Positions 5,473-31,183 of a DNA stretch of 39,426 nt are shown in pieces. Each line of letters opens with the position of its first letter. Position 1 is the stretch's first letter. The DNA comes from a virus: IMG/VR virus record IMGVR_UViG_3300033182_000272, positions 1 through 39,426 of that record; one strand, 5' to 3'. The notes under the pieces are model-generated. The model was not told the origin of the DNA. It searched no databases and was given only the letters and a program-made list of their open reading frames with translations. Position numbers and translations under genes: made by a program.

Positions 5473-7053
5473 CTAGGAGATCACCCAATCCTCTTCAACA
5501 TCAAAGCTGTTCTCCCACTTCTGCAACTCCTGCTCGTACCACGCCAACGACATGTACGGGTACTCCACCTCTTCCTGATACTCAGGAGCGTAGGCAAACT
5601 CTAAAGCGTGTACAGCCAACGCCAACGAAATCACACGGTCATCGTGCGGCGAACCAGACATGCCGCCACGACTGTTACGAGTAAACCGTGACAGCTCTGC
5701 ACACGTCGCCACAGACGGCACCCCGTCCGAGCGACGTTCACGCAACCACTTGTGCAACTTGTCAATCATCAACGGCTTCGTGACACGAGTCGTCTTCCAA
5801 CCCCACTCCATCTGCCGTTTCTTGCTTGTCGAGTTCAACGCCATACGACGCCAAATGCGTCTGTACCCCAACTTGCGCAACTCAGTCACAGTCGTCAGGC
5901 CATGGTTGTTGACCTCAGGCAAAACCAGCGCCGTGTTATACCACGTCCCCAACTTAAACAACTCGTAGGCAAACAAGTCAGGTTCGATGTGGCCATGCCA
6001 CTCCGCAACGACCCGAGTTTCGTCACCTACCGCTAACACATGCGCGCTGCTGTAGTCGCCATGTTTCAAACCCTCAGCAACGTCAGCGCCAATCACATAC
6101 GACGTGTCTTCCTCGGGCAACTCCCACACATGCACAAACGACGACGAAGCCAAATTCTCAACAGGTTCAAACGTCCGAGGAAACTCAGGCCCAGGCCCTT
6201 CTAAGTTCAACGTCCACTCAGGCTCAACCGCATCGTTGTTCAACTCCTCCAACAACTCAGCGTTGAACACCATCATGCCCGAACGAATAAACGCCTCAGT
6301 CGGGTTCGACGGGTACTCCTGATGCAGCTGCCACTCAGGCAAATCAAACTGCTTCTGTTCATACCAAGCGTCGTCACGCTCAGTCACAGAGTCCCAGCCG
6401 TAGAACATTGGCTTAAACACCGACTTGCCTGACTGAGCACGCACCCACAGATCTTCGAACTTGTTGCCAGACCCGTTCGCAGTGCTCAGCAGAATGAGCT
6501 GACCGCCAATATCGGCGGTCGGCTCAATCGAAGCCCACGCCTCGCCAGCGTTTTCTAGGAACGCAAACTCGTCCACCACGATCAAGCGGCCCGTGAAACC
6601 ACGGGCAGGATTGTTGCCTGACGGCAGCGACAAGATCTCTGACCCGTTCGACAACTCAACCTTCGTTAGGTTCGACGTAGTCACCCGAGCGCCCCTAGCA
6701 AGCACCCAGCCAGGCAGACGTTCCAAACCAAACTTGACCTTGCCCAACAGCTCCTGTGCTTCACGCTCGCCCTTAGAAAGCAGCATGACCCGAGTGTTTG
6801 GATGCCAATACGCCAACCAGAACACATAGAACGACACCAGCGTTGACCAGCCAATCTGACGGGCCTTGAGAGTGATGCTGTTTTCGCCGTCGACCCAACG
6901 GGTCAAGGCGGCAGCCTGAGACGGCCTGAGATTAAACAGGCGCTCCCCCTGAGGGTGCTGGATCATCCAGCAGTTCTCAGCCACCCAATGAGGGTCCGTA
7001 GCGCCACGGCGCCACGCAGCCTCCCTACGAGCTAGCTCCAACTGGTCCGACAT
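5473..7053 (-). CDS. terL: Terminase large subunit
   Basis: 526 aa. Walker A-like LKARQIGWST, Walker B LIVVDEFAF, and a C-terminal nuclease-type segment IGADVAEG. Confidence 0.9.
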   Translation of the reverse strand: MSDQLELARREAAWRRGATDPHWVAENCWMIQHPQGERLFNLRPSQAAALTRWVDGENSITLKARQIGWSTLVSFYVFWLAYWHPNTRVMLLSKGEREAQELLGKVKFGLERLPGWVLARGARVTTSNLTKVELSNGSEILSLPSGNNPARGFTGRLIVVDEFAFLENAGEAWASIEPTADIGGQLILLSTANGSGNKFEDLWVRAQSGKSVFKPMFYGWDSVTERDDAWYEQKQFDLPEWQLHQEYPSNPTEAFIRSGMMVFNAELLEELNNDAVEPEWTLNLEGPGPEFPRTFEPVENLASSSFVHVWELPEEDTSYVIGADVAEGLKHGDYSSAHVLAVGDETRVVAEWHGHIEPDLFAYELFKLGTWYNTALVLPEVNNHGLTTVTELRKLGYRRIWRRMALNSTSKKRQMEWGWKTTRVTKPLMIDKLHKWLRERRSDGVPSVATCAELSRFTRNSRGGMSGSPHDDRVISLALAVHALEFAYAPEYQEEVEYPYMSLAWYEQELQKWENSFDVEEDWVIS

Positions 7054-7526
7054 TAAGCAGGCCCGATCTCCAACACGTCCTTGCCCTGAGCCAGGTACGC
7101 CTGAAGTTGCTCATCAGACATCGACTGGAACCTGTCCTCAGCCGACACCGTCACCTGAATCTGCGGAGGCCGCACCTTGTCAGCCAACGACAGAATCATC
7201 TTCGACGCAGCATCCCACTTCGGATGGTCAGGATCCGCAGCGATCTTCAACGCAGCCTGGTAAATCGGAGACAACGCATCAGGCCCCAACACCGACTCGT
7301 CAGCCATCTTTGCCCACAACTTACGGAACCGCTCGTCCTTCTTCCAGCGACGCAACGTGCGATCCGCAAGACCATGTCGAGCAGCCCACTCCTTGTCAGA
7401 CAACCTGTCGTGCCCCACAGAGGTCAGGTTCTCCAAATACTGGTGAACCAACGGGTGAGGATCTTCCTCGCCCGTAGACGAGTTGTAAGTCCACCTAAAG
7501 TCATTCGGATTCTCATCAGCTTCCAT
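7053..7526 (-). CDS. terS: Terminase small subunit (candidate; HTH DNA-binding protein)
   Basis: Its ATGA overlaps the terL start. The HTH-like segment is SDKEWAARHGLADRTLRRWKK. I place the start at ATG 7526 (GGGGTGGAC upstream). The tracked TTG start at 7730 would require translating through the strong leader hairpin at 7604-7639. Confidence 0.55.
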   Translation of the reverse strand: MEADENPNDFRWTYNSSTGEEDPHPLVHQYLENLTSVGHDRLSDKEWAARHGLADRTLRRWKKDERFRKLWAKMADESVLGPDALSPIYQAALKIAADPDHPKWDAASKMILSLADKVRPPQIQVTVSAEDRFQSMSDEQLQAYLAQGKDVLEIGPA

Positions 7527-7603
7527 GTCCACCCCGTGGACATCGTCCAACGGGGGGCCGTTGTAGACGCCCTGACGGGCATCTAGAAAGCCTGCAACAA
7601 TGA

Positions 7604-7639
7604 CATTCAATGAGCCGCCCCTCCAGGGGGCGGCGAATG
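7604..7639 (-). promoter_or_regulatory. Leader hairpin element, copy B: CATTC-GCCGCCCC-CTGGA-GGGGCGGC-TCATTGAATG (minus-strand sense)
   Basis: 8-bp GC stem. The 5-nt 5' flank and 10-nt 3' flank are identical to the copy at 13091-13127. It lies in the leader upstream of terS. Confidence 0.7.
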
Positions 7640-7671
7640 CTTGGGCTACTACAGCACGTTCAGCATTGAAG

Positions 7672-7703
7672 AGTCTAGCACACGACATTACACGGTCGTC
7701 CAA
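7672..7703 (-). promoter_or_regulatory. Candidate promoter of the terminase/structural operon (extended -10 TGCTAGACT; -35-like TTGGAC)
   Basis: Minus strand reads TTGGAC-N20-TAGACT with TGC immediately upstream of the -10. The spacer is too long for a canonical -35, so the call rests on the extended -10. Confidence 0.3.
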
Positions 7704-7805
7704 CACCCGAATGCTAGTGAAGCGTCGCAACCAGCGGGCCGCCTGGGGGGCGTCCCGCCAAGCGTAAGCGATAAGCTACTTATCACACGGACGGCGTCCA
7801 CGAAT

Positions 7806-19323: not shown

Positions 19324-20247
19324 ATGACCGACACATTCATCACCCTGTTCCAAGGGAACCCTGCCGTCATCGGCACAGAAGAAGGCGGCTGCGACCGCAG
19401 CCCCCACAAGACCACCGCCGACCACATGGCCTGGTGGGTCACACAGATGCAGCAACACCTAGACGGCGGGCCGCAGGCAGGCGTGTACCCGATGGTGCAA
19501 ACCCCCGAAGGGTTCGTCGTCCACTGGGGCTGCATCGACGTAGACGAAGGCGAAGAAGCGTCGCTGATCCACGCCAGCAACATCGTCACTGTGCTCCGCA
19601 AGTTCGGTGTCACAGGCTGGATCGAACGCTCACGCTCCAAGGGCTACCACGTCTGGGTGTTCGCCCAAGACTGGGTGCCCGCACAACTCATGCGTCACGC
19701 CCTGCTCGCTGCTGCACAGATCGCACAGGCACCTACCCGTGAGATCAACCCGAAGCAGTCGACCCTGGCAGACGGCGCAGTCGGCAACTACGTCAGACTG
19801 CCGTACCCAGGCGACAACCCAGGAGCAGACGAGCACCGCCGCATGGTCGTCGACCACACCCTCGACGAGTTCGTCACAGCCGCACACGCCTCAGCTGTAG
19901 ACGCCCCCACGTTGGAGCCGTTGGCTGCCCTGTACAAAGCACCACAGCTGGTCACCGCCAAGAGTTTCGGCAGCGGCAGCGTGAGCCGTGCCAAGTCGGC
20001 ACGGCGACGCATGTCTGGCCTGGCCTGGCACATGTACACCCACGGCTGCGGACGGCAGGACGACCGTTCAGAATGGCTGTGGGCATTCAGCCGTGAACTC
20101 ACCAAGTGTGACCTGTCCCTGTCTGAAGCACAGGAGTTTCTGTACGAGGCGCATGACCAGCACGCACCCAAGTGGGATCATCGTGCAGACAGAGGACGAC
20201 CACAGCTCGACAGGATGCTGGCCAAAGCATCTGGGGCTGTGTCATAG
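19324..20247 (+). CDS. Archaeo-eukaryotic-type primase-polymerase (AEP/Prim-Pol)
   Basis: Motif I is CIDVDEG. Motif II is KGYHVWVF. Motif III-like is GNYVRLPYPG. Confidence 0.75.
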   Translation: MTDTFITLFQGNPAVIGTEEGGCDRSPHKTTADHMAWWVTQMQQHLDGGPQAGVYPMVQTPEGFVVHWGCIDVDEGEEASLIHASNIVTVLRKFGVTGWIERSRSKGYHVWVFAQDWVPAQLMRHALLAAAQIAQAPTREINPKQSTLADGAVGNYVRLPYPGDNPGADEHRRMVVDHTLDEFVTAAHASAVDAPTLEPLAALYKAPQLVTAKSFGSGSVSRAKSARRRMSGLAWHMYTHGCGRQDDRSEWLWAFSRELTKCDLSLSEAQEFLYEAHDQHAPKWDHRADRGRPQLDRMLAKASGAVS

Positions 20248-20258
20248 AAAGGCAACCC

Positions 20259-20573
20259 ATGATCAACATTGACCCTGCAGATCGGCCTAGAGAACAGAAC
20301 CGACGGGCTGTGCTGCTGGAAGCAGAAGAAGCTGTCTGCAGCGACCGCAACAAAGACTACGGCGACCCCGAAGACAACTTCGACGACATCGCCAGCCTGT
20401 GGTCTGCGTACATGCGCAGCCCGTTCACACGGGCAGACGTGGCCGTGATGATGATGCTGGTGAAGGTGGCACGCATGAAGACCTCGCCAGCCCTCAGGGA
20501 CCACTGGGTCGACATCGCAGGCTACGCAGCCTGCGGCTACCCCTCAGCGTTGGCGGACGGCAGCGATGCTTGA
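20259..20573 (+). CDS. Small conserved phage protein (104 aa), DUF6378-like or all-alpha by recollection
   Basis: RNKDYGDPEDNFDDIASLW...ADVAVMMMLVKVARM...DHWVDIAGYAACG. GAAAGG RBS. Confidence 0.55.
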   Translation: MINIDPADRPREQNRRAVLLEAEEAVCSDRNKDYGDPEDNFDDIASLWSAYMRSPFTRADVAVMMMLVKVARMKTSPALRDHWVDIAGYAACGYPSALADGSDA

Positions 20574-20652: not shown

Positions 20653-20914
20653 ACACCTGACCAACGCAGCTCAGGACTGGGTTGAACAGGCCCACTGCCG
20701 CATCGCCCGCATCAACCCCGACTACTTCTTCCCCGAACGGGGCGGCTCTGCACAGAAACAAGCAGAGAAGCTGTGTGCCCCCTGCACCGTCAAAGACGAA
20801 TGCCTGCGGTTTGCTCTCGACAACAACGAGTGGATGGGGATCTGGGGCGGCAAGTCAGGCAGGCAACGCCGCATCATCAAACAGCTAGAAGCCAAAGGGG
20901 TCGACTGGCAATGA
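20645..20914 (+). CDS. whiB: WhiB-family transcription factor ([4Fe-4S] Wbl protein)
   Basis: Cys pattern C...C-x2-C-x5-C (AHCRI...LCAPCTVKDEC), followed by GIWGG and a basic tail. Confidence 0.9.
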   Translation: MAEHLTNAAQDWVEQAHCRIARINPDYFFPERGGSAQKQAEKLCAPCTVKDECLRFALDNNEWMGIWGGKSGRQRRIIKQLEAKGVDWQ

Positions 20915-21399
20915 CCCAACGCAAGCCCATGCGCATGTACATGCAGCTCAAGCCGAAGGTGAAGCAACGCCCTCGGCTTGGGCGCCGTGGGCGAGTGTTC
21001 ACACCCACAGCCACGCTGCAACACGAGGCCGAGATCGCAGCCCTGTGGAAGAAGAAGTTCGGTAGACGCAAACCACTGGAAGGCCCCGTGTTGGTGTCTG
21101 TCGATTTCGACAAACACGGCATGTGGGTAGAGGTGGCGCCTACAGACCTGCCATCCCTGATGCGGGGCGACATTGACAATTATCTGAAAGCCGTCCTAGA
21201 TGCGTTGAACGGGATTGCGTATGTCGATGACAAACAGATCTCGGTGTTATTGTCCACAACCACAGGGCACCTGTGGAAAACCCAGGAGGAAGACATGCCG
21301 AATGTCGGCGGTAGAAAGTACCCGTACACCCAGGCTGGCAAGGCTGCTGCGAAGAAGGCTGCCAAGAAGGCCACGAAGAAGGCCACGAAGAAGCGATGA
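20911..21399 (+). CDS. rusA: RusA-type Holliday junction resolvase with a Lys-rich C-terminal tail
   Basis: GDIDNYLKAVLDALNGIAYVDDKQI. The tail is KAAAKKAAKKATKKATKKR. Its ATGA overlaps the whiB stop. Confidence 0.8.
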   Translation: MTQRKPMRMYMQLKPKVKQRPRLGRRGRVFTPTATLQHEAEIAALWKKKFGRRKPLEGPVLVSVDFDKHGMWVEVAPTDLPSLMRGDIDNYLKAVLDALNGIAYVDDKQISVLLSTTTGHLWKTQEEDMPNVGGRKYPYTQAGKAAAKKAAKKATKKATKKR

Positions 21400-21560
21400 G
21401 CGAAGTATCGCCGCATCCTCGGCGCCTGATGGAAGTGCTGGGCGATATGGCTGAGCAGTTCGACGACGCCATCGACATTGACTGGGGCGACGACGCAGAC
21501 GAAGAGATCGTCGTTGCCTGTGACCTTGAGAACCCCGAGACATGTGAGAGTTGCCAATGA
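21396..21560 (+). CDS. Hypothetical acidic protein (54 aa)
   Basis: ATGA overlap with rusA. Too short to appear in the ORF track. Confidence 0.4.
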   Translation: MSEVSPHPRRLMEVLGDMAEQFDDAIDIDWGDDADEEIVVACDLENPETCESCQ

Positions 21561-21724
21561 CACAGCGTGTACTGAACGGAATCATGGCGGACGTGATGCG
21601 ACGGGCAGGCATCAGCCCTGCCGTCGCACAGCGGATGCTTGACGGCGAGTGGATTGCCGACGAACCTGTAGATCTGGAAGGAGCCGAGAATGCCAGCGAA
21701 GAAGCCAGCGAAGCGGGCGTCTAA
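21557..21724 (+). CDS. Hypothetical protein (55 aa)
   Basis: ATGA overlap with the upstream gene. Its 3' end overlaps the next gene by 35 nt. Confidence 0.35.
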   Translation: MTQRVLNGIMADVMRRAGISPAVAQRMLDGEWIADEPVDLEGAENASEEASEAGV

Positions 21725-21899
21725 GTCCAAGTCTCGTGTGAACGAGGCAGGGAACTACACGAAGCCTGCGATGCGGAAGCGCATGTTTGAGGAGATTAAG
21801 GCTGGAGGTAAGGGCGGCAAGCCTGGTCAGTGGTCTGCGCGTAAGGCACAGTTGTTGGCTAAGCGTTACCAAGCTGCGGGTGGAGGGTACAGAAACTGA
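21690..21899 (+). CDS. Lys/Arg-rich small protein 1 (69 aa)
   Basis: GGAAGGAG RBS. The motif GNYTKP...GGKPGQWSARKAQLL...GGGY belongs to a widespread small-protein family that I recognise but cannot name reliably. Confidence 0.65.
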   Translation: MPAKKPAKRASKSKSRVNEAGNYTKPAMRKRMFEEIKAGGKGGKPGQWSARKAQLLAKRYQAAGGGYRN

Positions 21900-22153
21900 T
21901 GGCTAAGGCAAAGTCGCAGAAGTCTCTCGACAAGTGGACGAAGCAGAAGTGGCGTACCGCTTCTGGCAAGCCGTCCACGCAGGGACGCAAAGCCACGGGC
22001 GAGGCGTACATGCCTGCGGCTCAGGTCAAGAAGTTGAAGTCAACGGAAGCAGGCCGCAAGAAGCTGGCTGCTGCCAACAGGAAGAAGCGCGAAGCAACGA
22101 AGCAAGGCAAGCAGCATGCGAAGCATGGCCTGCACAAGGGAAAAAAGCGGTAA
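21899..22153 (+). CDS. Lys-rich small protein 2 (84 aa)
   Basis: TGATG coupling. KSLDKWTKQKWRT...KKREATKQGKQ. Confidence 0.65.
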   Translation: MAKAKSQKSLDKWTKQKWRTASGKPSTQGRKATGEAYMPAAQVKKLKSTEAGRKKLAAANRKKREATKQGKQHAKHGLHKGKKR

Positions 22154-22443
22154 TGGCCGAGAAGAAGAAGAAGGATCCACGGCTGGAACGTGCGGGTGTG
22201 TCTGGCTACAACAAGCCGAAGCGCACCCCCAACCATCCGAAGAAGTCACACATCGTAGTCGCCAAGGAAGGCGATCAGATCAAGACGATTCGGTTTGGGC
22301 AGCAGGGTGTGAAGGGTGCGGGCAAGAACCCGTCGTCCAAGTCCGAGAAGGCACGACGCAAGTCGTTCAAGGCCCGCCACGGCAAGAACATCTCCAAGGG
22401 GAAGATGTCTGCGGCGTACTGGGCAGACAAGGTGAAGTGGTAA
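22153..22443 (+). CDS. Lys-rich small protein 3 (96 aa)
   Basis: TAATG coupling. GYNKPKRTPNHPKKSHIVVAKEGDQIKTIRFGQQG...KMSAAYWADKVKW is a conserved viral small-protein signature of unknown function. Confidence 0.7.
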   Translation: MAEKKKKDPRLERAGVSGYNKPKRTPNHPKKSHIVVAKEGDQIKTIRFGQQGVKGAGKNPSSKSEKARRKSFKARHGKNISKGKMSAAYWADKVKW

Positions 22444-22655
22444 TGGAACCGAAGAAGCCGACCAAGAAGGCTGCGAAGAAGGCGACGAAGAAAGCGGTGG
22501 CGCCTACGCCACCGCCGCCCAAGCGTGAGCCTGTGTGGGACGTGAAGCGCGCCCAGTTCGACATGCAGAACCGTTGGCGGCCAATCATCGAAGAAGGCTA
22601 CGAGCCGTTCACTATTGACGGCGGCTGGATGTATCTAAGGAAGAAATTGGACTGA
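22443..22655 (+). CDS. Small protein 4 with a Lys-rich N-terminus (70 aa)
   Basis: TAATG coupling. MEPKKPTKKAAKKATKKAVAPTPPPPKRE, followed by a globular C-terminus. Confidence 0.6.
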   Translation: MEPKKPTKKAAKKATKKAVAPTPPPPKREPVWDVKRAQFDMQNRWRPIIEEGYEPFTIDGGWMYLRKKLD

Positions 22656-23146
22656 TGGGGGCATTCAGGGACCAGTCGTGGAGCAACAGGTACACGGCCA
22701 TGGGGGACGCTGCCGAAGCGCAGTGCGTGGCCTGGCTCGACAGCAACGACCGAGGGTGGGTGCGATACGGCCTAGACCGACCGCCTCTGCGCATGTCGAT
22801 GCTGCCCGAGTTCATCCGCCACACCCCTGACTTTCTCACCAGTGCCAGCCTCGTAGAGTGCAAAGGGTTCGGGCGGGACCAGCTCGGCAAGATCAAGATT
22901 GCCGACTGGGCATCGCTGATGCGATGGCACAAGATGCATCCCGTCGAACTGTTCTTCTACGACCAACACAACGAACGCTGCATCGTCGTGCCGTTCGACA
23001 AACTCCACCAGTCGGTGGCACACAAAGACAAGCGGATCCAGAAGGATCAATTCAACGACGACCCTCCCAAGCCATACTGGGCTTTCCCTGCCGACCTTCT
23101 GGCAGAGCTAGGCGAAACCCATGGGTCAATCACAACCGAGGCGTAG
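22655..23146 (+). CDS. PD-(D/E)XK nuclease resembling T7 endonuclease I
   Basis: HTPDFLTSASLVECKG compares with the T7 gp3 core TPDFLLPNGIFVETKG as I recall it. TGATG coupling. Confidence 0.6.
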   Translation: MGAFRDQSWSNRYTAMGDAAEAQCVAWLDSNDRGWVRYGLDRPPLRMSMLPEFIRHTPDFLTSASLVECKGFGRDQLGKIKIADWASLMRWHKMHPVELFFYDQHNERCIVVPFDKLHQSVAHKDKRIQKDQFNDDPPKPYWAFPADLLAELGETHGSITTEA

Positions 23147-23663
23147 ACGCCCCCGACCTTCCGTTGAGGATCGTGCTGCGCTGCAGGAGAAATGGGAGCG
23201 GATACTCGTGGCCGAGGGACTACCAGCGGAACCCAAGCGCCCGTTCATGCGGGATTCGAAGCAGGACGCCGACGGCGTCCGCCGTTGGCGTGGCCCTCGG
23301 GAGATCTCGTCAGACCTGATCGATGTGCTAGGATACGACGAACGTGTCCTCACAGCCACTGAGAAGCTCATGCAGGCCCCCCACGCCCCGCTGGGTGGGT
23401 ACACAGCCGAGAAGCTCCACGAGCTACGAGAGGCGCTCCTAGACGCCATAGAGGAGACATTGACGGCACGAGAGGCCGAAGCTCTCGTGTCGATCGTTCT
23501 CGGGCAAGACACCTACGAGTCCGTCGCACGCCGCATGAAACTGCCACGCAGCACCTGCTACCTGACAGTCGCACGAGGTTTGGACAAGCTCCGAGAGGTG
23601 CTAGAAGATGTGCCCGAAGTAGCGGAATACCTAGAACGACACACAGTAAAGGAAACCGAATGA
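23121..23663 (+). CDS. HTH protein with a sigma-70 region 4-like domain (180 aa)
   Basis: LTAREAEALVSIVLGQDTYESVARRMKLPRSTCYLTVARGLDKLREVL. No region 2-like segment was recognised. The start is uncertain. Confidence 0.6.
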   Translation: MGQSQPRRRRPRPSVEDRAALQEKWERILVAEGLPAEPKRPFMRDSKQDADGVRRWRGPREISSDLIDVLGYDERVLTATEKLMQAPHAPLGGYTAEKLHELREALLDAIEETLTAREAEALVSIVLGQDTYESVARRMKLPRSTCYLTVARGLDKLREVLEDVPEVAEYLERHTVKETE

Positions 23664-24769: not shown

Positions 24770-27700
24770 TCAGCTAAAGAAGTTCGGGTTCTGACGGCGA
24801 AGCTGTTCAGCTTCCCGATCACGTTCAGTGACCCGACGGAACGCAATCGGACTAATCCAGTTCACAATGTTCTGCAGATAGCGCTCTTCAGTCTTCGGGT
24901 CTTCAGCAGTCGGAACCAGCCGCCGTGCCGTGCCAGCCACAGGCAAGAACGACTCGGTCCAACGCATCCACGACGACTCGGCAGTCAACGCCCCGTTGTC
25001 GTCCCGTTCAAAGATTCCTGCCTTAGTCAAAGGCTCAACAAACGGGCCAAGCGCAACCCGCCAAGCGTTCGGGACGACTTCTCGTCGTCCGTTGTAGCTG
25101 GACTGGAAGAACGTGTCGTAGTCAGCCAGATACTCAAACGGCACCTTCACCTGAGGTGAAGTCATCGTCAAGATCGTGCGAGGATTAAACGTCGTGTCGA
25201 TCTCCGTGAACGGCAAGTCAGGCACCATGAAGACACTGTCGCCGCCAATGCTGAACGGCAACTGAATATGGAACCGTTCCTCAATGAACTTCGGGATGTA
25301 ATCTTCCGTCTCAGCGTCCCGCTCGATCTCCCGCTTCAACGAAGCAGTACGGTTGTAGATCTTCGGGTTCGTCAACATCATCTCAAGCTGCAACGGCAAG
25401 TTCTTGCGAGTCCATGTGTAGAACGGAATCACACGGCGAAGAAAGCCACGTTCAAACGCCGACAAGTCGGCGTAATCGAAGTGATACTTGTACACGTCGC
25501 TGACAGCAGCCGAAATGTTAGAACCGTTCATCAAACGGTCCATCGCCAACGTGCCACGAAGATAGTTCTCAACTGTCGTCGTCGGCTTCCTCAAAGCCGA
25601 CGTTGCTGCGTTGTTCGGGTTGAACGGGTTGACTGCATCCAGCCCCCTGCCATTGCGGATACGAGCAATGTCCTGAAGCTCCGTAGTCTGACCGCCAGAC
25701 AACACGCCGTAACGAATCATCTCTTCCATGGCTTCTACAGCGCGCTGGCCCTCTTCAGTGCGAGACGCACGCTTAGCAGCAGGGCTGGCACGCAAAGCCA
25801 AGATCTGTTCCTTGATGCCTTCACCCTTTGCCATCGAATCCCTGACAGGCCCAAACAGCACATGGAAACGCCTGTAGCTGTCGAGATCGACGCCAGCCAA
25901 AGCATTGTTGAAAACGCCGCCCATAAAGTTGCGGCTGTGGAAACCAATCGAAGCGATAGCCCACGACTTGAACAAGTCAGTGATCCTGTCCCACGTCCTC
26001 AAGAAGTTGTTCTTGCCTCGCGCCCCCATGATCTCGTTGATCTGAGACAACCCAACAGCGATCTCTTCAGGAACCTGGCCCGTAGAACCAATCGGCACAT
26101 GCCCGTCCAGCACCTTCGTAAGCATGGTCAAACGCTCAGGAATTTCCATGCTGTTGAACTTGTCTTGAAGCACATCAATTTCTGACCTAGTAGCCCTGCG
26201 AAGAAGGTCAGCAGTAGCCTGCTCAGCCTGCGCCTGTAGACGCAACGACTCCGCTACAGAAGCAGCTTCTTGCTCTGCAGCAAAGGTCCGAGCCACGTCA
26301 GCGTCAATCTGAGCATCGAGCCGATCAGCAGCCCGATAGATCTCGTCGGCCCTGTTACGCAGGGCCAACTCTTCTTGCTGCAACGGGAACGCTTCATCGT
26401 CAGCGGCGCGACGTGTCGATTCCAGATCGCGTTCCAACTGCCGAACCTTGTTGCGGTTCGCAATGGCTTGGGCACGAGCTTGCTGCAGGTCGCCCTGCAT
26501 GTTGCGACCCACATCGCCCAGAGCTTCAACCTCTTCAACTTTGTCGCTCATCAACTCCCAACGACGCATGCGGGCGCCTTCAAGGAAGGTGTCGATTGTT
26601 CGCACAAATTCAGATTCAGAAACAATTTTCACCTGCTTAGCTCTGAACTCTGATGCAGTCTTCAATGCTCTGTTGATTTGTTGAGTGAACTCGAAAGTGT
26701 CGCTCAACAATAGTTCTTGCTTCTGAATGGCTTCAGCCATGTCTGCGAGCACGTCAAACTCGTTGCTGATTTCATCAGCAAAGTCAGCAAGATCAACGTC
26801 AGGGTCTAGACCCATGGCCTTTAGCTGGTTGTTGTACGCACGTCGCCAAGCACCCAACAGCTGACCTGCACGGCCTCGCCATTGATTCATGGATTTCACT
26901 AGCTCAGGCGTAACTTCAGTGGTGGAATGAACGTTCAGGTCTTTAATTCGATCAACCATGTAATCGAACTCGTCAACAGCAGCAATCAAACGGTCTTGCA
27001 GAGTGCCGATGTTGCTAGGGACCACAGTGTCTGCATCGTGGAACTGCTGAGCTACTAGCCGCATCTTGTTTACAACATCACGAAGGCTAGGCGTAACAAA
27101 CGCCTCCATGTCAGTAACGTCGCCTTGAAAGACTTCGTAAGTGTCTGGTCGGGGGATGCGTTGCTGATAGGCCGCCTCTGCTTCTTCAAGGCCAGAGAAG
27201 TCAAAGAACGATCGACGCCTTGACTGCTCAACAGTAGCCTTGTCGATAGAAGACTTGACCACGCTTTCAGATGTAGGCACTTCCAGTTGAGCAGGAGACA
27301 ACGGGATTACGGCCCAAGTTCCTTTGTCGTGGCGAATCGTGTACAGGATCGAGTCGTGCCCTTGGGCACGCAACTCAGCAACGAAATCAGCAGCGATGCG
27401 AGACTGCAACACGTCCATCTGTGCATCAGGCAAATCGTTGCGGAACCAAGTGCTGGTCAGCGGGTGAACAAAGTCGTCAAAGAAGCCGCCAGCATTGTCC
27501 AGAATTGCTTTTTCGTTGCTAATGAAGGCTTCCACAGGGATGGAGTCGTTGTACCTAATTCCGTCTTCGATGCCGTCACGAATTAGGCCGATAACTCTCA
27601 TGAACTGATCGTCATCAAGCCCTGTGCCGACTCGGAAGCCCCTGCTGGCGTAAACCCTGTTGGTAAAGTTTTCGGCATTGATAGTCCGAACAATGTCGTT

Positions 27701-30700
27701 GCCTTCTTGCGCACGACCCCTAAGAACACTGACTATCAGTTCTCGGGAACCACTGATGTCAGTATCATCGAGCAAGTCGGACAAAACACCGAGAACCCGA
27801 GTATCACCTACCTGATCAAACAAGTCATCTACAAACTTGTAATGAGCATCACGGCTAGCAGGCCCAGCAAACTCAAACGCTGCCTCAAGATACGACTTAG
27901 GTCGACCCACAATCGTGCCGTCAGGCAACTTGCCAGTCATCAACTGCCAAATCTCGTCGGCATACGGAATGCCGACCGCCCGCAAATCTTCCAACCCGTA
28001 ATGCCCGTTCCTGAAAGCAGAATCAAGCACTTCGCCATGCAGCAAAGCTAAACCAGAACCCCGAGTTCTTTCGTTCCACGCCTGACTGTCAGGAACTGGC
28101 CTACCCAAATGGATGTCTTCAAGCGTGCCGCCAAACACCGCAGGGTTGTCTGAACGCACCATAAACCCGACAAGCCTGGCAGGATCGTGATCAGAAAACC
28201 CAGTTGAATACTGAACGTTCTGAGCAAGGTGCATGCCCAGATAAACGTCGATTTCGTGTACGTTTCTCTCGCCTGGCTGCGGCTTGTAGTTCAGATCAAT
28301 AGCTTCACGGTTCGCGCCTGTCCCGTGGAACCAAATCATTTGGTTGTCGCCGTAAGTCAAATAGCCCTTGCTGCTCGCAGCGAAACGCTCAATCGCCAAC
28401 TTGATTTCTTCCCGAAACTCAGGCGGGAACTCGTCGTCAAGCAACTCAACGATTTCGTCAAGCTCTTGCTGCAACTCGTCACGCTTAGCCTGAGCATCAA
28501 CAATGCGAGCACGAAGAGGCGACTGCATCGCCTCGTCAGCCGTAGCCACAACCTTCTTCTGAGCCTGAACAATCTCGTCCAAACTACGCTTCACGCCAAG
28601 AACCTTGTCGCGCACGGCACGAGCTTCTGTCCTGCCAATCGCCCGCTTCGGGACATTCGGCAAGTTCTCCAGCAAAGGCAACAACTCACGGTTCAAAGCA
28701 TCTAGGAACACAGCCTCCTCTTCAGGAGCCAGCCGATAAATCTGCTCCAACAACCGAGAAGCCCGAGCAGCCCTTGCCGAAGCCGCAACACCATTCCTCA
28801 CCAGATTTTCAGCCTGATCTCGCAACGCCTGCTGAGTAGCAACGTCGCCCACAGCCAAGAAGTAATCGGCTTCAGCCTGAGCAATCACGTCGTTCAACTG
28901 ACGAATCTCGGCGTTGATAACGTCAATCCGCTCCAAGAACTCAGGCGCTACTTCCAAACCGTCATCAACGGCAGAACCAATCTGCTCAATCTCCCTGTAA
29001 AGAAGATTGCGGCGACGGCCCAACTCGGCCAAGCCCTCCTTGATGCGTTCATAATTAAGTTCGTACCGTCGGGCAGCAGTTTCGGATTCCCGAGCAGCCA
29101 TCCTGATGCGGTCCAAAGCATCGTCAGTGCGCTGCTTCAAAGCATCCAACGCCTGCCGAGCCTGTGTAGCAGCCTCAAGGTAGTAATCGCCAGCGTCCCT
29201 GAACGGCTGCCCTGGGGTTGCCTCCAGCTTGACATCCCACAGCTCTGCCTGCACACGCCTAGCTTCTTCAGCCTCAGCCGCAGCCTTCTTGGCTGCGGCG
29301 TCGGCATCATCAGCTGCCTTAACCGCAGCGTCTCGCACCGCTTCCTGCTTAGCGTTCATCGCATGCAGATCCTGCAAGCGACGCTCAATGTTTCGTGCAG
29401 CTTTACTGGCCGCATACGCAGCTTCGTCACGAACCTCGCGCTCCAGAACAACGCCCATTTCACGCAGGTAGTTCTCAGCAAACTTGCCTTCTACCCGTCG
29501 AGAAAGAATGTTGATGTGCTGAGGCATCGCACTAAACAAGTCTTCATCGAACCACTTGTAGACCTGTTCGCCCTGCTCAGCCATCACATCTTCAAGATGC
29601 TGGAAAGCCTGCTCACGAGGCGTCAAGCCCTTCGAATGCTCGCTCTGCTTGACCAGAGTCAGACCCATAAAGTCTTCGCCTGGAACAATCTTGGCGCGCT
29701 TCTCAAACGTCTCAAGGTACGTCTGATCTTTCGAGTAGTTCGTTCGGGCCTTGCCGTGCCACACAGAAATCTCTGAAGAAGCAATAGAAGGCTGCCAACC
29801 CTCACGGAACCGAATCCACTCTGGAACTTCGGCGTCTACATCAAACTTGTTGATGTGGACTGCCTTGTTAGCTTCCAAACGAACAGACTCAGTAAAGTCT
29901 CTGAGTTCGTTCCACAAGTCTTCTGGGAAACCTGCAGGAGGGGCGTCGGCGCCCAAAGCGTCGTAAGCCTGCTTGCCGCTGATGTTCTGATCCAGCAGCT
30001 TGCGAGACAGATTGGCCCACTGCTTTTCCAGAGTGTTCTGAAGGTTACGGGCAACGCCTCGGGCAATGTTCGTTGCGTCCATCGCATGGAACGCATCGAC
30101 CCACAACTTGTCGCTCGTAGAAGGATCGCGCAACAGCTGCTTCAAAACCTTACGGTCACCGCCAAGAATGCCGCCCAGAGCGCTTCTGCGAAGCTTCTGG
30201 GCAATCGTGTTAACAGCAAACCGTGGCGTGAGCCGTAGCAGCCTGTTGTCGTGCGACAGCACCTGCAGGTAGAAAGGCTTGGCAGGGCCAGGGGTCAGAC
30301 GGCCCACTGTCTTCCCGAAAGGAACACGGAACTGCAAACCGCCCGTGAACGCTTCTCCTGCTTTTAGAGTGCCAAGTTCACGAGCAGAAGCGCTGATCCT
30401 GGCCAAGTCGTCGGCAGAAGCGGCTCGTGCGCCGCTGTTGAACACTCGTCGAGCCAACGGTGCATCGCCAGCCTGAATAGCTGCCCTGACCAGACCCATT
30501 GTGCCTTGCTTGGCCAACGGCAACGTGCCCAAAGTTAGCCAAGTAAACGGGTCGAAAACTACGTCGCCTACAAACCCAGCGATGTTGTCCAACGGCTTAA
30601 CGCCGAACAGTTCAACTTCGCCCAACCCTGGCGCCCACTCTTGGATAACGTCACCAAACCCGATGCCATCTCGGGTTTGGGTGTACAGCTCAGTAAACGA

Positions 30701-31183
30701 AAACTGCTGATCGGGATCAACAAGATCCCCGATCTCTTTGAGGGTTGAAACGACAGCTGCACGAGGCGTATCAATAGCCTTCAGCAAGCCCATTGCAGGC
30801 TGGACTAGATCGCCCCAACCAAACCCGTCGTCGCCGTCGTACTTGGAATCACCAAGCCAAGCATCAACAATGTTCTGAGTGATCTCAGGCGTCAGCGGGC
30901 TGCTGCCAGGCTGCCCTAGCTCTGGGAGTGTCGTTGAAGGCGGAGGAATGTCAAAGGCAGCGTCACGCTGCTTTTGAGCGATCTCGGCAAAGTCAATGTC
31001 TCCGACATACGATCCTGGGTCGTCAGGGTCGAACGTCGACAGCGTCGGGCTTTCTTCAATGATGCTTTGAACGCGTTCTTCGTCAACGCCATACCTGTTG
31101 GCGATTTCAGCAATGGCTTTGTCGAACTCGGTTAAGGGTTCATCGCTGCTGAGAAGATCAAACTCGTTATCTCCTTCAGCCAT
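24770..31183 (-). CDS. Giant virion-associated (internal/ejection-type) protein, 2137 aa
   Basis: One uninterrupted ORF in the gp16-equivalent position after two smaller internal-protein-like genes. It has long coiled-coil stretches. Confidence 0.75.
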   Translation of the reverse strand: MAEGDNEFDLLSSDEPLTEFDKAIAEIANRYGVDEERVQSIIEESPTLSTFDPDDPGSYVGDIDFAEIAQKQRDAAFDIPPPSTTLPELGQPGSSPLTPEITQNIVDAWLGDSKYDGDDGFGWGDLVQPAMGLLKAIDTPRAAVVSTLKEIGDLVDPDQQFSFTELYTQTRDGIGFGDVIQEWAPGLGEVELFGVKPLDNIAGFVGDVVFDPFTWLTLGTLPLAKQGTMGLVRAAIQAGDAPLARRVFNSGARAASADDLARISASARELGTLKAGEAFTGGLQFRVPFGKTVGRLTPGPAKPFYLQVLSHDNRLLRLTPRFAVNTIAQKLRRSALGGILGGDRKVLKQLLRDPSTSDKLWVDAFHAMDATNIARGVARNLQNTLEKQWANLSRKLLDQNISGKQAYDALGADAPPAGFPEDLWNELRDFTESVRLEANKAVHINKFDVDAEVPEWIRFREGWQPSIASSEISVWHGKARTNYSKDQTYLETFEKRAKIVPGEDFMGLTLVKQSEHSKGLTPREQAFQHLEDVMAEQGEQVYKWFDEDLFSAMPQHINILSRRVEGKFAENYLREMGVVLEREVRDEAAYAASKAARNIERRLQDLHAMNAKQEAVRDAAVKAADDADAAAKKAAAEAEEARRVQAELWDVKLEATPGQPFRDAGDYYLEAATQARQALDALKQRTDDALDRIRMAARESETAARRYELNYERIKEGLAELGRRRNLLYREIEQIGSAVDDGLEVAPEFLERIDVINAEIRQLNDVIAQAEADYFLAVGDVATQQALRDQAENLVRNGVAASARAARASRLLEQIYRLAPEEEAVFLDALNRELLPLLENLPNVPKRAIGRTEARAVRDKVLGVKRSLDEIVQAQKKVVATADEAMQSPLRARIVDAQAKRDELQQELDEIVELLDDEFPPEFREEIKLAIERFAASSKGYLTYGDNQMIWFHGTGANREAIDLNYKPQPGERNVHEIDVYLGMHLAQNVQYSTGFSDHDPARLVGFMVRSDNPAVFGGTLEDIHLGRPVPDSQAWNERTRGSGLALLHGEVLDSAFRNGHYGLEDLRAVGIPYADEIWQLMTGKLPDGTIVGRPKSYLEAAFEFAGPASRDAHYKFVDDLFDQVGDTRVLGVLSDLLDDTDISGSRELIVSVLRGRAQEGNDIVRTINAENFTNRVYASRGFRVGTGLDDDQFMRVIGLIRDGIEDGIRYNDSIPVEAFISNEKAILDNAGGFFDDFVHPLTSTWFRNDLPDAQMDVLQSRIAADFVAELRAQGHDSILYTIRHDKGTWAVIPLSPAQLEVPTSESVVKSSIDKATVEQSRRRSFFDFSGLEEAEAAYQQRIPRPDTYEVFQGDVTDMEAFVTPSLRDVVNKMRLVAQQFHDADTVVPSNIGTLQDRLIAAVDEFDYMVDRIKDLNVHSTTEVTPELVKSMNQWRGRAGQLLGAWRRAYNNQLKAMGLDPDVDLADFADEISNEFDVLADMAEAIQKQELLLSDTFEFTQQINRALKTASEFRAKQVKIVSESEFVRTIDTFLEGARMRRWELMSDKVEEVEALGDVGRNMQGDLQQARAQAIANRNKVRQLERDLESTRRAADDEAFPLQQEELALRNRADEIYRAADRLDAQIDADVARTFAAEQEAASVAESLRLQAQAEQATADLLRRATRSEIDVLQDKFNSMEIPERLTMLTKVLDGHVPIGSTGQVPEEIAVGLSQINEIMGARGKNNFLRTWDRITDLFKSWAIASIGFHSRNFMGGVFNNALAGVDLDSYRRFHVLFGPVRDSMAKGEGIKEQILALRASPAAKRASRTEEGQRAVEAMEEMIRYGVLSGGQTTELQDIARIRNGRGLDAVNPFNPNNAATSALRKPTTTVENYLRGTLAMDRLMNGSNISAAVSDVYKYHFDYADLSAFERGFLRRVIPFYTWTRKNLPLQLEMMLTNPKIYNRTASLKREIERDAETEDYIPKFIEERFHIQLPFSIGGDSVFMVPDLPFTEIDTTFNPRTILTMTSPQVKVPFEYLADYDTFFQSSYNGRREVVPNAWRVALGPFVEPLTKAGIFERDDNGALTAESSWMRWTESFLPVAGTARRLVPTAEDPKTEERYLQNIVNWISPIAFRRVTERDREAEQLRRQNPNFFS

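Follow-up and report, generated by a model that had tools for sequence, protein, structure and literature searches.

What is a run of four tiny, overlapping and strongly basic genes doing beside the replication and recombination genes of a phage? The question is posed by the IMG/VR virus record IMGVR_UViG_3300033182_000272, the whole of which, a stretch of 39,426 nucleotides (nt), was analysed and is referred to here as the window. The four open reading frames (ORFs), called m69, m84, m96 and m70 after the lengths of their products in amino acids (aa), had been taken, in a reading made without database searches (the sequence-only reading), for a set of lysine-rich mini-proteins that might coat or condense DNA. 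The basic charge of the set has stood up to further analysis, and its members have proved to be of different kinds: m69 and m84 are a single protein split in two, m96 is predicted to be a well-folded alpha/beta domain, and m70 is confined to one lineage. Among the functions that can be proposed we lean, tentatively, towards a horizontally mobile cassette of cooperating nucleic-acid-binding proteins, probably associated with the capsid interior.

The ORFs lie end to end on the plus strand, m69 at 21690..21899, m84 at 21899..22153, m96 at 22153..22443 and m70 at 22443..22655, and the TGATG or TAATG overlaps noted earlier are all present: the junctions read ctgATGg (21896-21901), gtaATGg (22150-22155), gtaATGg (22440-22445) and, at the end of m70, ctgATGg (22652-22657). 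Overlaps of this kind suggest that the genes are translationally coupled. The calculated isoelectric points (pI) of the four products are 11.2, 11.3, 10.8 and 10.0, with lysine plus arginine making up 28, 32, 29 and 24% of the residues, respectively, in agreement with their earlier description as extremely basic; the neighbouring ORFs o54, o57, o163 and o180 have pI values of 4.1-6.1. Comparison with relatives gives ratios of nonsynonymous to synonymous divergence (dN/dS) of 0.05-0.15 for the genes of the block (about 0.09-0.10 for m69 and 0.06-0.15 for m84), as expected under purifying selection. Because of these ratios, and of a PHROG match for each of the first three, we consider the ORFs to be real genes. 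Any purine-rich stretch can give rise to small ORFs rich in AAG and AAA, and m70 belongs to no wider family, so that a chance neighbourhood of unrelated or mis-called ORFs had to be considered; it is hardly credible given the low dN/dS, the thousands of homologues, the conservation of order and strand in unrelated phages and the existence of natural fusions, and on the grounds of conservation and co-occurrence we rule it out.

The motifs quoted in the sequence-only reading (GGKPGQWSARKAQ; KSLDKWTKQKW; GYNKPKRTPNHPKKSH...IRFG...SAAYWADKVKW) are all found in the translations, and they do mark widespread, uncharacterised families, which comprise at least 8000, 2832 and at least 8000 clusters at 90% identity for m69, m84 and m96, respectively. 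Profile searches place m69 in phrog_17747 (2.5e-33, profile positions 2-63 of 63), m84 in phrog_14910 (1.5e-16, positions 1-67 of 80) and m96 in phrog_7595 (3.5e-40, positions 2-96 of 96). All three are labelled 'unknown function', and the source-given names of the best 120 matches listed for each family are without exception 'hypothetical protein'. None of the four proteins has a match above cut-off in Pfam or NCBIfam. The earlier statement that no function is known for such proteins agrees with the literature, in which we found none described.

The first two genes are best considered together. m69 consists of a variable Lys-rich head followed by a conserved helix/Gly-rich loop/helix core, NYTKP..R...IKAGGKGGKPGQWSARKAQ..A..Y...GGGY, and m84 carries the motif KSLDKWTKQKW..SGK...GEAYMP...KKR..T..GKQ. 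A scan for the m69 motifs over one genome per bacterial species returned at least 556 loci. Homologues encoded on chromosomes, among them those of Geodermatophilus, Micromonospora, Acidobacteriaceae, Rubrobacter, Trueperaceae, Spirosoma, planctomycetes and cyanobacteria, have 130-260 aa in a single chain, of which the N-terminal half aligns with m69 and the C-terminal half with m84. In an alignment of 33 bacterial proteins and two phage fusions of both halves (P0316 and P0331, 136 aa), m69 and m84 fall on the respective halves with their motifs in register. Since the bacterial homologues are single-chain and colinear, and fused phage versions exist, m69 and m84 are, on the strength of these alignments, the two halves of one DUF5872-like protein, with the gene split at the linker after GGGY; the halves presumably reassemble as a heterodimer.

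The relationship to Pfam family DUF5872 (PF19197) is most visible in the full-length proteins. When ten bacterial homologues were compared with the model, one passed (the best match, from Micromonospora, with 28.1 bits against a gathering cut-off of 27.5, over model positions 5-111 of 116), six scored 17.7-26.6 bits and three had no match. Taken singly, m69 and m84 give no match to the model at E-values up to 0.1 and thus fall short of the cut-off; P0316 and P0331 give none at E-values up to 1 in the current scan, although P0316 carries a precomputed weak match. While the bacterial proteins cover most of the model in one chain, the protein of the window is divided between two ORFs, and it also differs in charge: the phage version has a net charge of +33 over 131 aa and a pI of 11.3, whereas the cellular homologues are near neutral, with a mean net charge of +2.7 and a median pI of 7.3. 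A DUF5872 protein has also been listed in a giant virus (PMC12085832).

The cellular homologues bear additional Rho_N/SAP-type domains or long AKKxAAKK tails, and many of them end in a conserved Rho_N domain or a ...YE..H..RKTV... helical tail. The single-chain bacterial genes (loci L026-L095) are concentrated in Geodermatophilaceae, Rubrobacter, Trueperaceae, Spirosoma and Acidobacteriaceae, groups known for tolerance of desiccation or radiation. These observations hint at a stress or nucleoid role of DUF5872-like proteins in cells. The gene neighbours of the bacterial homologues are shared within families only and none is shared across phyla, so that they give no operon clue. The AlphaFold2 model of the fusion is helical and of moderate confidence (predicted local distance difference test score (pLDDT) 74), with helices at residues 7-20 and 31-43 and the invariant GGKPGQW segment forming the loop between two helices; few m84 rows were used in the alignment for this prediction, as MAFFT placed m69 onto m84 when there were many. 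Searches of PDB sequences, with single sequences and with a profile of the DUF5872-like alignment, gave nothing significant.

The third gene is of a different kind. For m96 AlphaFold2 yields a more confident model (pLDDT 88.4, predicted template modelling score 0.77), with a short helix, a beta-hairpin and two helices, from which m96 would be an independently folded alpha/beta domain, weakly related to the Tlr6F/DUF5754 group. The match of m96 to DUF5754 reaches 14.8 bits (E 0.031, model positions 5-30 of 49), below the gathering cut-off of 27.4 bits. Among 55 m96 relatives 19 match the same model at E-values up to 0.1, the best at 1.4e-3, and none of them reaches the cut-off. Judged by the Pfam cut-offs, then, the proteins of the window stand outside both DUF5872 and DUF5754, as relatives lying at the edge of the two models. 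Foldseek searches of the PDB returned no counterpart of the fusion model and no significant match for the m96 model (best E-values for the two models 1.4 and 9.3), and a profile of the m96 alignment gave nothing significant against PDB sequences. Against the predicted viral structures of BFVD, the m96 model matched uncharacterised phage proteins, proteins described as XkdF and ChaB, ORF125 of phage ICP1 (E 1.2e-3, template modelling (TM) score 0.60) and small giant-virus proteins, namely the 95-aa Tunisvirus protein V9SE36 (E 4.9e-3, TM 0.58) and one of CeV-01B (E 0.13), targets whose DUF5754 membership is unconfirmed.

Tlr6F is a small uncharacterised protein that nearly all polinton-like viruses possess, together with several virophages, many giant viruses and some poorly characterised phages (PMC4642659, PMC12220804, 10.1101/2022.07.28.501842); in polinton-like viruses it is a core gene alongside the capsid and packaging genes (PMC4642659; 10.1101/2022.07.28.501842), and its phage homologues have been pointed out in the literature (PMC4642659). 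m96 resembles it in being a small viral protein of about 95 aa and in its weak matches to the model, and its fold match to the small giant-virus proteins may be a further likeness. The matches to the model stay below the cut-off, and the phrog_7595 group is far more conserved and more basic.

A more specific clue is given by ICP1, whose Gp125 is a putative capsid maturation protease (PMC8096241, PMC9040626). Its gene (ORF125) sits in the capsid operon, residues 36-160 of the product constitute a Peptidase_S78_2/XkdF domain (6.6e-10), and residues 188-266 align with the m96 profile in hhalign with a probability of 95.2% (E 2.6e-8), sharing the motifs GYNKP, IRFG, F.AR and S..YW. By this comparison the putative capsid maturation protease of ICP1 has an m96 domain at its C-terminus. 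Gp125 is one of the XkdF-type proteases that are extended at the C-terminus; in it the domain forms one chain with the protease and has lost most of its basic residues, and in the window m96 is free-standing, highly basic and placed in a block of replication genes. An exhaustive search of representative proteins identified 1214 m96 relatives, many of them forming the C-terminal part of chains of 200-1100 aa. Long proteins usually carry the domain at their extreme C-terminus, and the fusion partners are mostly without recognisable domains. Two fusions (P0504 and P0509) contain LysM, a lysin-type region and a weak ART-PolyVal match, and m96 itself has weaker matches to phrog_220 (8.2e-9, positions 534-604), annotated as 'minor head protein and DNA pilot', and to phrog_9979 (6e-5). 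MuF-type, ART-PolyVal and phrog_220 polyvalent virion proteins thus carry the m96 domain inside or at their end, where the window has separate mini-genes.

Do the three proteins belong together? The sequence-only reading had treated all four as one coupled block inside a DNA-metabolism module and had proposed looking for the same combination in other genomes. For m69, m84 and m96 the combination recurs far above chance, in unrelated phages and even in fused form, so that they do make a set; m70 falls outside it, and the location among replication genes is correct for the window. Of the 17 GenBank phage records in which m69 occurs, 15 contain m84 too, as a rule abutting it, and several have m96 as well. 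At the 80 IMG/VR loci with m69, m84 follows downstream on the same strand in 76 of the 78 that have room for it (abutting in 41 of these), and m96 lies within 5 kilobases (kb) on the same strand in 44 of the 80. Where m69 and m84 are apart, the gap was filled by other tiny, very basic ORFs in six of seven loci inspected. The Tara Oceans podovirus L007 has m69, m84 and m96 in the same order, with abutting or overlapping junctions and 78-80% identity, between flanks unrelated to those of the window (Endonuclease VII upstream and a different terminase downstream). Finally, four proteins (P0405, P0429, P0448 and P0430) are triple fusions of m69-like, m84-like and m96-like parts in that order, and further fusions join m84 with m96 and DUF5824 with m96; the mini-domains m69, m84 and m96, as well as DUF5824 and NUDIX, are shuffled between free-standing and fused forms. 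From these genome comparisons, m69, m84 and m96 travel together between unrelated phages as one cassette.

Three of these fusion loci deserve separate mention: P0448 (456 aa) ends in a NUDIX hydrolase domain (6.1e-13), P0411 (248 aa) starts with DUF5824, another Pfam domain of unknown function, ahead of its m96 part, and the contig of P0405 has a gene with an Acb5 Pfam match two genes downstream (L185 3267-3602).

The mobility of the cassette can be seen at close range by comparing the window with its relatives. Between positions 21690-22153 of the window and 4001-4464 of L003, the synonymous divergence (dS) of m69 and m84 is 0.73-0.81, that is, three to seven times the values for the flanking RusA (0.25) and o163 (0.11) genes, which indicates replacement of the cassette by recombination. 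In L101 (IMGVR_UViG_3300010389_000045) RusA is 97.6% identical over 127 shared residues, and yet m69 and m84 are absent; their slot (L101 2488-2622) is occupied by a different basic ORF of 44 aa, MAKGLYANINAKKRSGKKMRNKGDKGAPTDAAFRRAAKTAKKSK, and RusA lacks its Lys/Ala tail. The slot of m69 and m84 therefore looks like a swap site for small basic genes. In other marine phages, runs of 4-7 co-oriented, abutting ORFs (34-110 aa, 25-40% lysine plus arginine) surround m69, m84 and m96, as at L108 2025-3551, L124 4553-5661, L159 324-1320, L106 4989-5680 and L007 3897-4001, with the further recurring motifs GTGKKPKGSGRRLYTDENPKDTV, KAGGSGKKVKNRKQAIAIALNEAG and PYGKGTYGSKRGRP. Seen beside these runs, the block of the window would be a small example of a larger 'basic mini-protein island'.

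The fourth gene, m70, has a different history. Its product has a KKPTKKAAKKATKK tail at the N-terminus, then a Pro-rich linker, and at the C-terminus a domain of some 40 aa; it has no match in GenBank phages, Pfam, PHROG or NCBIfam, and it was found only in five close relatives from IMG/VR, with a variable tail and a C-terminal domain that is 52-94% identical. Upstream of the block, at 20911..21399 on the plus strand, is the gene for a RusA Holliday-junction resolvase (Pfam RusA 4.2e-17, phrog_140 2.3e-18). The RusA domain (PF05866) covers residues 14-113 with 63.4 bits against a gathering cut-off of 22.8, and the C-terminal Lys/Ala tail lies outside it. The end of RusA, KAAAKKAAKKATKKATKKR, and the beginning of m70, MEPKKPTKKAAKKATKK, are both as had been reported, and both carry KKAA/KKAT repeats. 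They are encoded by a AAGAAGGCNRCN repeat with a period of 12 nt, at 21326-21404 (repeat family D1) and 22438-22504, the two tracts being 86% identical over 43 nt. The tail of RusA is shorter in L003, where the protein has 159 aa, and absent in the 130-aa RusA of L101, and the copy number of the repeat varies between relatives, which suggests slippage, or recombination spreading the Lys/Ala tail between genes. Lys/Ala-rich (AKKA, H1-like) tails are typical of actinobacterial DNA-binding proteins such as HupB/MDP1; those of the window sit on a resolvase and an orphan small protein, and they are gained and lost between close relatives. By analogy, m70 and the RusA tail may represent a local addition of H1-like DNA-affinity tails, outside the widespread cassette.

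As regards function, nucleic-acid binding is suggested by several features: the basic charge that is specific to the phage versions, the Rho_N/SAP domains and H1-like tails on the cellular homologues, the NUDIX fusion, an AT-hook-like core near the L007 cassette (RGRP, in a neighbouring 34-aa ORF, at 15.0 bits against a cut-off of 17.4) and the recurrence of junction-resolvase and terminase genes as neighbours. Indeed the cassette follows a junction resolvase both in the window (RusA) and in L007 (Endonuclease VII). In the mechanism that we propose, the strongly basic phage versions would bind the phage genome without sequence specificity. The nucleic acid could instead be RNA: basic proteins of this kind might bind ribosomal or messenger RNA and redirect translation or RNA turnover, like phage ribosomal proteins or partners of Nudix decapping enzymes. 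The size and charge of the proteins and their 75-95% identity across host phyla among the matches listed do recall ribosomal proteins, one triple fusion has the NUDIX domain mentioned above (6.1e-13), and the Rho_N domain of the cellular homologues derives from an RNA-binding protein. Nevertheless we regard a target in RNA or the ribosome as unlikely, because there is no match to a ribosomal-protein or RNA-binding family in Pfam or NCBIfam, no solved ribosomal protein is recovered by profile or fold (the ribosome entries in Foldseek have E-values above 5 and TM scores below 0.2), and neither the fusion with a capsid protease nor the positions in head modules fit such a role.

These last two features belong to the evidence for a capsid link, which we propose because of the ICP1/XkdF and lysin/ART fusions, the match to phrog_220, the core status of Tlr6F and the positions of the genes. 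In cyanophage KBS-S-2A the m96 gene is placed between those for the minor head and coat proteins (MED4-184 has the same layout, with unnamed genes); in S-CBS2 it comes after the major capsid protein, inside the structural module, and in the P22-like phage MW202867 it is found among tail and head-completion genes. C72C1 has it between an annotated small terminase and the portal, ICBM2 has it where the late operon ends, and L007 has it directly upstream of the large terminase; in MEP402, which yielded no m96, it is the m69-m84 pair that directly precedes the large terminase. In what is the most speculative step of the mechanism, the cassette proteins would be loaded into the capsid, or act at its interior, during packaging; once inside they would neutralise or organise the DNA, and they might enter the next cell with it.

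The same fusions allow a different explanation, in which the m96 domain serves to target the capsid or to contact the scaffold, binding protein and not nucleic acid and carrying cargo (protease, lysins, the DUF5872-like protein) into the procapsid, its charge being secondary. The domain is mostly at the extreme C-terminus of long proteins, as in the ICP1 protease, where the basic residues are largely gone, and it follows the DUF5872-like part in the triple fusions; C-terminal encapsidation signals are, moreover, known for an HK97-type protease. We judge this explanation quite improbable, since free-standing m96 copies are strongly basic and since the same family is a core gene in the double jelly-roll capsid lineage of polinton-like viruses, virophages and giant viruses (PMC4642659): a shared partner among capsid proteins is unlikely for a family that spans different capsid lineages, whereas packaged DNA is common to all of them.

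The main rival of a cassette acting at the capsid interior is that the proteins bind DNA inside the cell and are left unpackaged, as accessory proteins that act together with the junction resolvase, upstream of packaging, either by coating or organising phage DNA during its replication or recombination or by compacting the nucleoid of the host. We consider this possible, if on the doubtful side. It fits the setting of the block, which follows RusA among replication and recombination genes (and Endonuclease VII in L007), and for the absence of any promoter or terminator signal between the block and the genes upstream; a scan for both around the block, on the coding strand, gave nothing above shuffled expectation. 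The free-standing chromosomal genes for DUF5872-like proteins, with their Rho_N or H1-like tails, are also what would be expected of nucleoid-associated proteins. It is less easily reconciled with the fusion of the m96 domain to a prohead protease and to lysin-bearing giant proteins, with the m96 genes inside the head and tail clusters of cyanophages and P22-like phages, and with the fact that Tlr6F travels with morphogenetic genes in polinton-like viruses (PMC4642659).

Several observations weigh against our preference for the capsid interior. In the window the block ends the strand of replication genes (primase, DnaB, WhiB, RusA), some 15 kb from the terminase and on the opposite strand, and in the pelagiphage HTVC035P m69 and m84 adjoin replication and recombination genes, near those for a DnaA-like protein, an annealing protein and a nuclease. 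The ICP1 copy of the m96 domain has lost most of its basic residues, from which the conserved role of the fold could be contact between proteins and not DNA binding, and since there are chromosomal homologues in bacteria the DUF5872-like fold is not intrinsically a virion component. Peptides of Tlr6F were below significance in the virion proteome of PgVV (10.1101/2022.07.28.501842), the virion-proteomics literature on carrier phages (cobavirus, phiRIO-1) does not mention the cassette proteins, and the S-CBS2 homologue is annotated only as hypothetical, it being the neighbouring gene that is called structural. We found no published experiment on any member of the m69, m84 and m96 families. In Foldseek searches of the PDB the two predicted structures matched no solved fold, DNA-binding or other, and none of the four proteins has a Pfam, NCBIfam, PDB-profile or significant PDB-fold match to HU/IHF, H-NS, Lsr2, the histone fold or the AT-hook.

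The closest functional parallels for proteins of the kind that we favour are the internal proteins IPI-III of phage T4 and the adenovirus core proteins VII, V and mu, which are small and basic and have been proposed to accompany or neutralise packaged DNA. The parallel is one of function only, with no relationship in sequence or fold to the proteins of the window. The T4 internal proteins, moreover, are targeted to the capsid by a leader that the prohead protease cleaves, and nothing similar was seen in the window proteins. A role as small terminase was considered and rejected, as there is no small-terminase match in Pfam or PHROG, the large terminase of the window has an upstream ORF of its own, and CRP-603 has both the cassette and an annotated small terminase; the position directly upstream of the large terminase in L007 and MEP402 keeps such a role as a weak lead.

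A bolder extension of the preferred reading joins the DUF5872-like pair to the Tlr6F-like domain in one shared 'genome-core' module that is loaded with the DNA, organises or neutralises it and enters the next cell. We think this rather unlikely as it stands; if it were true, tailed phages, polinton-like viruses, virophages and giant viruses would have the Tlr6F-like part in common, although they represent two unrelated capsid lineages, and the DUF5872 proteins of bacteria would have given rise to, or been derived from, an unrecognised class of nucleic-acid-binding proteins. Should the cassette turn out to organise DNA inside the capsid, it would be a new class of virion component across viral realms.

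These families are already catalogued, in PHROGs and in the Pfam entries DUF5872 and DUF5754/Tlr6F, with no function assigned, and the literature on the two Pfam families gives none for either. Few small proteins of aquatic phages are as widespread and as conserved as m69, m84 and m96, with identities typically of 75-95% that extend over phages isolated on SAR11, Roseobacter, OM43 and SAR116, and since 2015 Tlr6F has figured as an unexplained gene that is close to universal in polinton-like viruses, virophages and giant viruses. The leads added here are that two of the 'families' are halves of one protein that is also bacterial, that the three units make one module, which also occurs fused, and that a Tlr6F-like domain is found in the putative capsid maturation protease of ICP1, a genetically tractable phage. 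A literature search returned no paper on the splitting of the DUF5872 gene, on a cassette of these three units, on their triple fusion or on the link with the ICP1 protease. The window itself is one ordinary carrier, among thousands, of a very common uncharacterised module.

With regard to the rest of the window, it looks like the complete genome of a podovirus-type phage (about 39.4 kb). The minus strand encodes the major head protein, scaffold, endolysin, portal (SU10/P22 type) and large terminase at 0.2-7 kb, the large terminase being at 5473-7053 and its upstream ORF at 7053-7730, and the tail-fibre and virion proteins at 24.8-39.4 kb, while a long block of replication and regulatory genes occupies the plus strand from about 8 to 24.4 kb. 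In this block, near the basic genes, are ORFs syntenic with the DnaB helicase and AEP primase genes of the close relative L003, followed by DUF6378, WhiB and RusA (Pfam), with a sigma-70-like protein downstream of the basic genes. Since the window encodes WhiB, the host is likely to be actinobacterial. A near-identity DNA search with the basic block against GenBank phages gave no match; close relatives of the phage are present in metagenomes and IMG/VR (L003-L006 and L097-L101).

Two small acidic ORFs separate RusA from m69, as had been noted, and are outside the basic cassette. The first (21396..21560, plus strand, 54 aa, pI 4.1) is 88-98% identical in the relatives just mentioned; the second (21551..21724, plus strand, 55-57 aa, pI 4.1) is 89-96% identical in relatives and overlaps the start of m69 by 35 nt, an overlap that is kept in them. 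Neither has a Pfam or PHROG match. Just 3' of the block, a 180-aa protein (23121-23663, plus strand), kept at 95-99% in relatives, has a sub-threshold match to ECF-type sigma-70 factors (TIGR02937, 29.7 against a cut-off of 42.9 bits) and may be a phage sigma factor. On the other strand, a 2137-aa ORF (24770-31183, minus strand) stands next to genes for tail and virion proteins and matches nothing in Pfam or PHROG; it may encode a giant virion or ejection protein. The DUF6378 protein (20172-20573, plus strand, 1.9e-30) also matches phrog_474 and phrog_1167, which are labelled 'phosphofructokinase'; on a domain of 81 positions this label looks like annotation carry-over.

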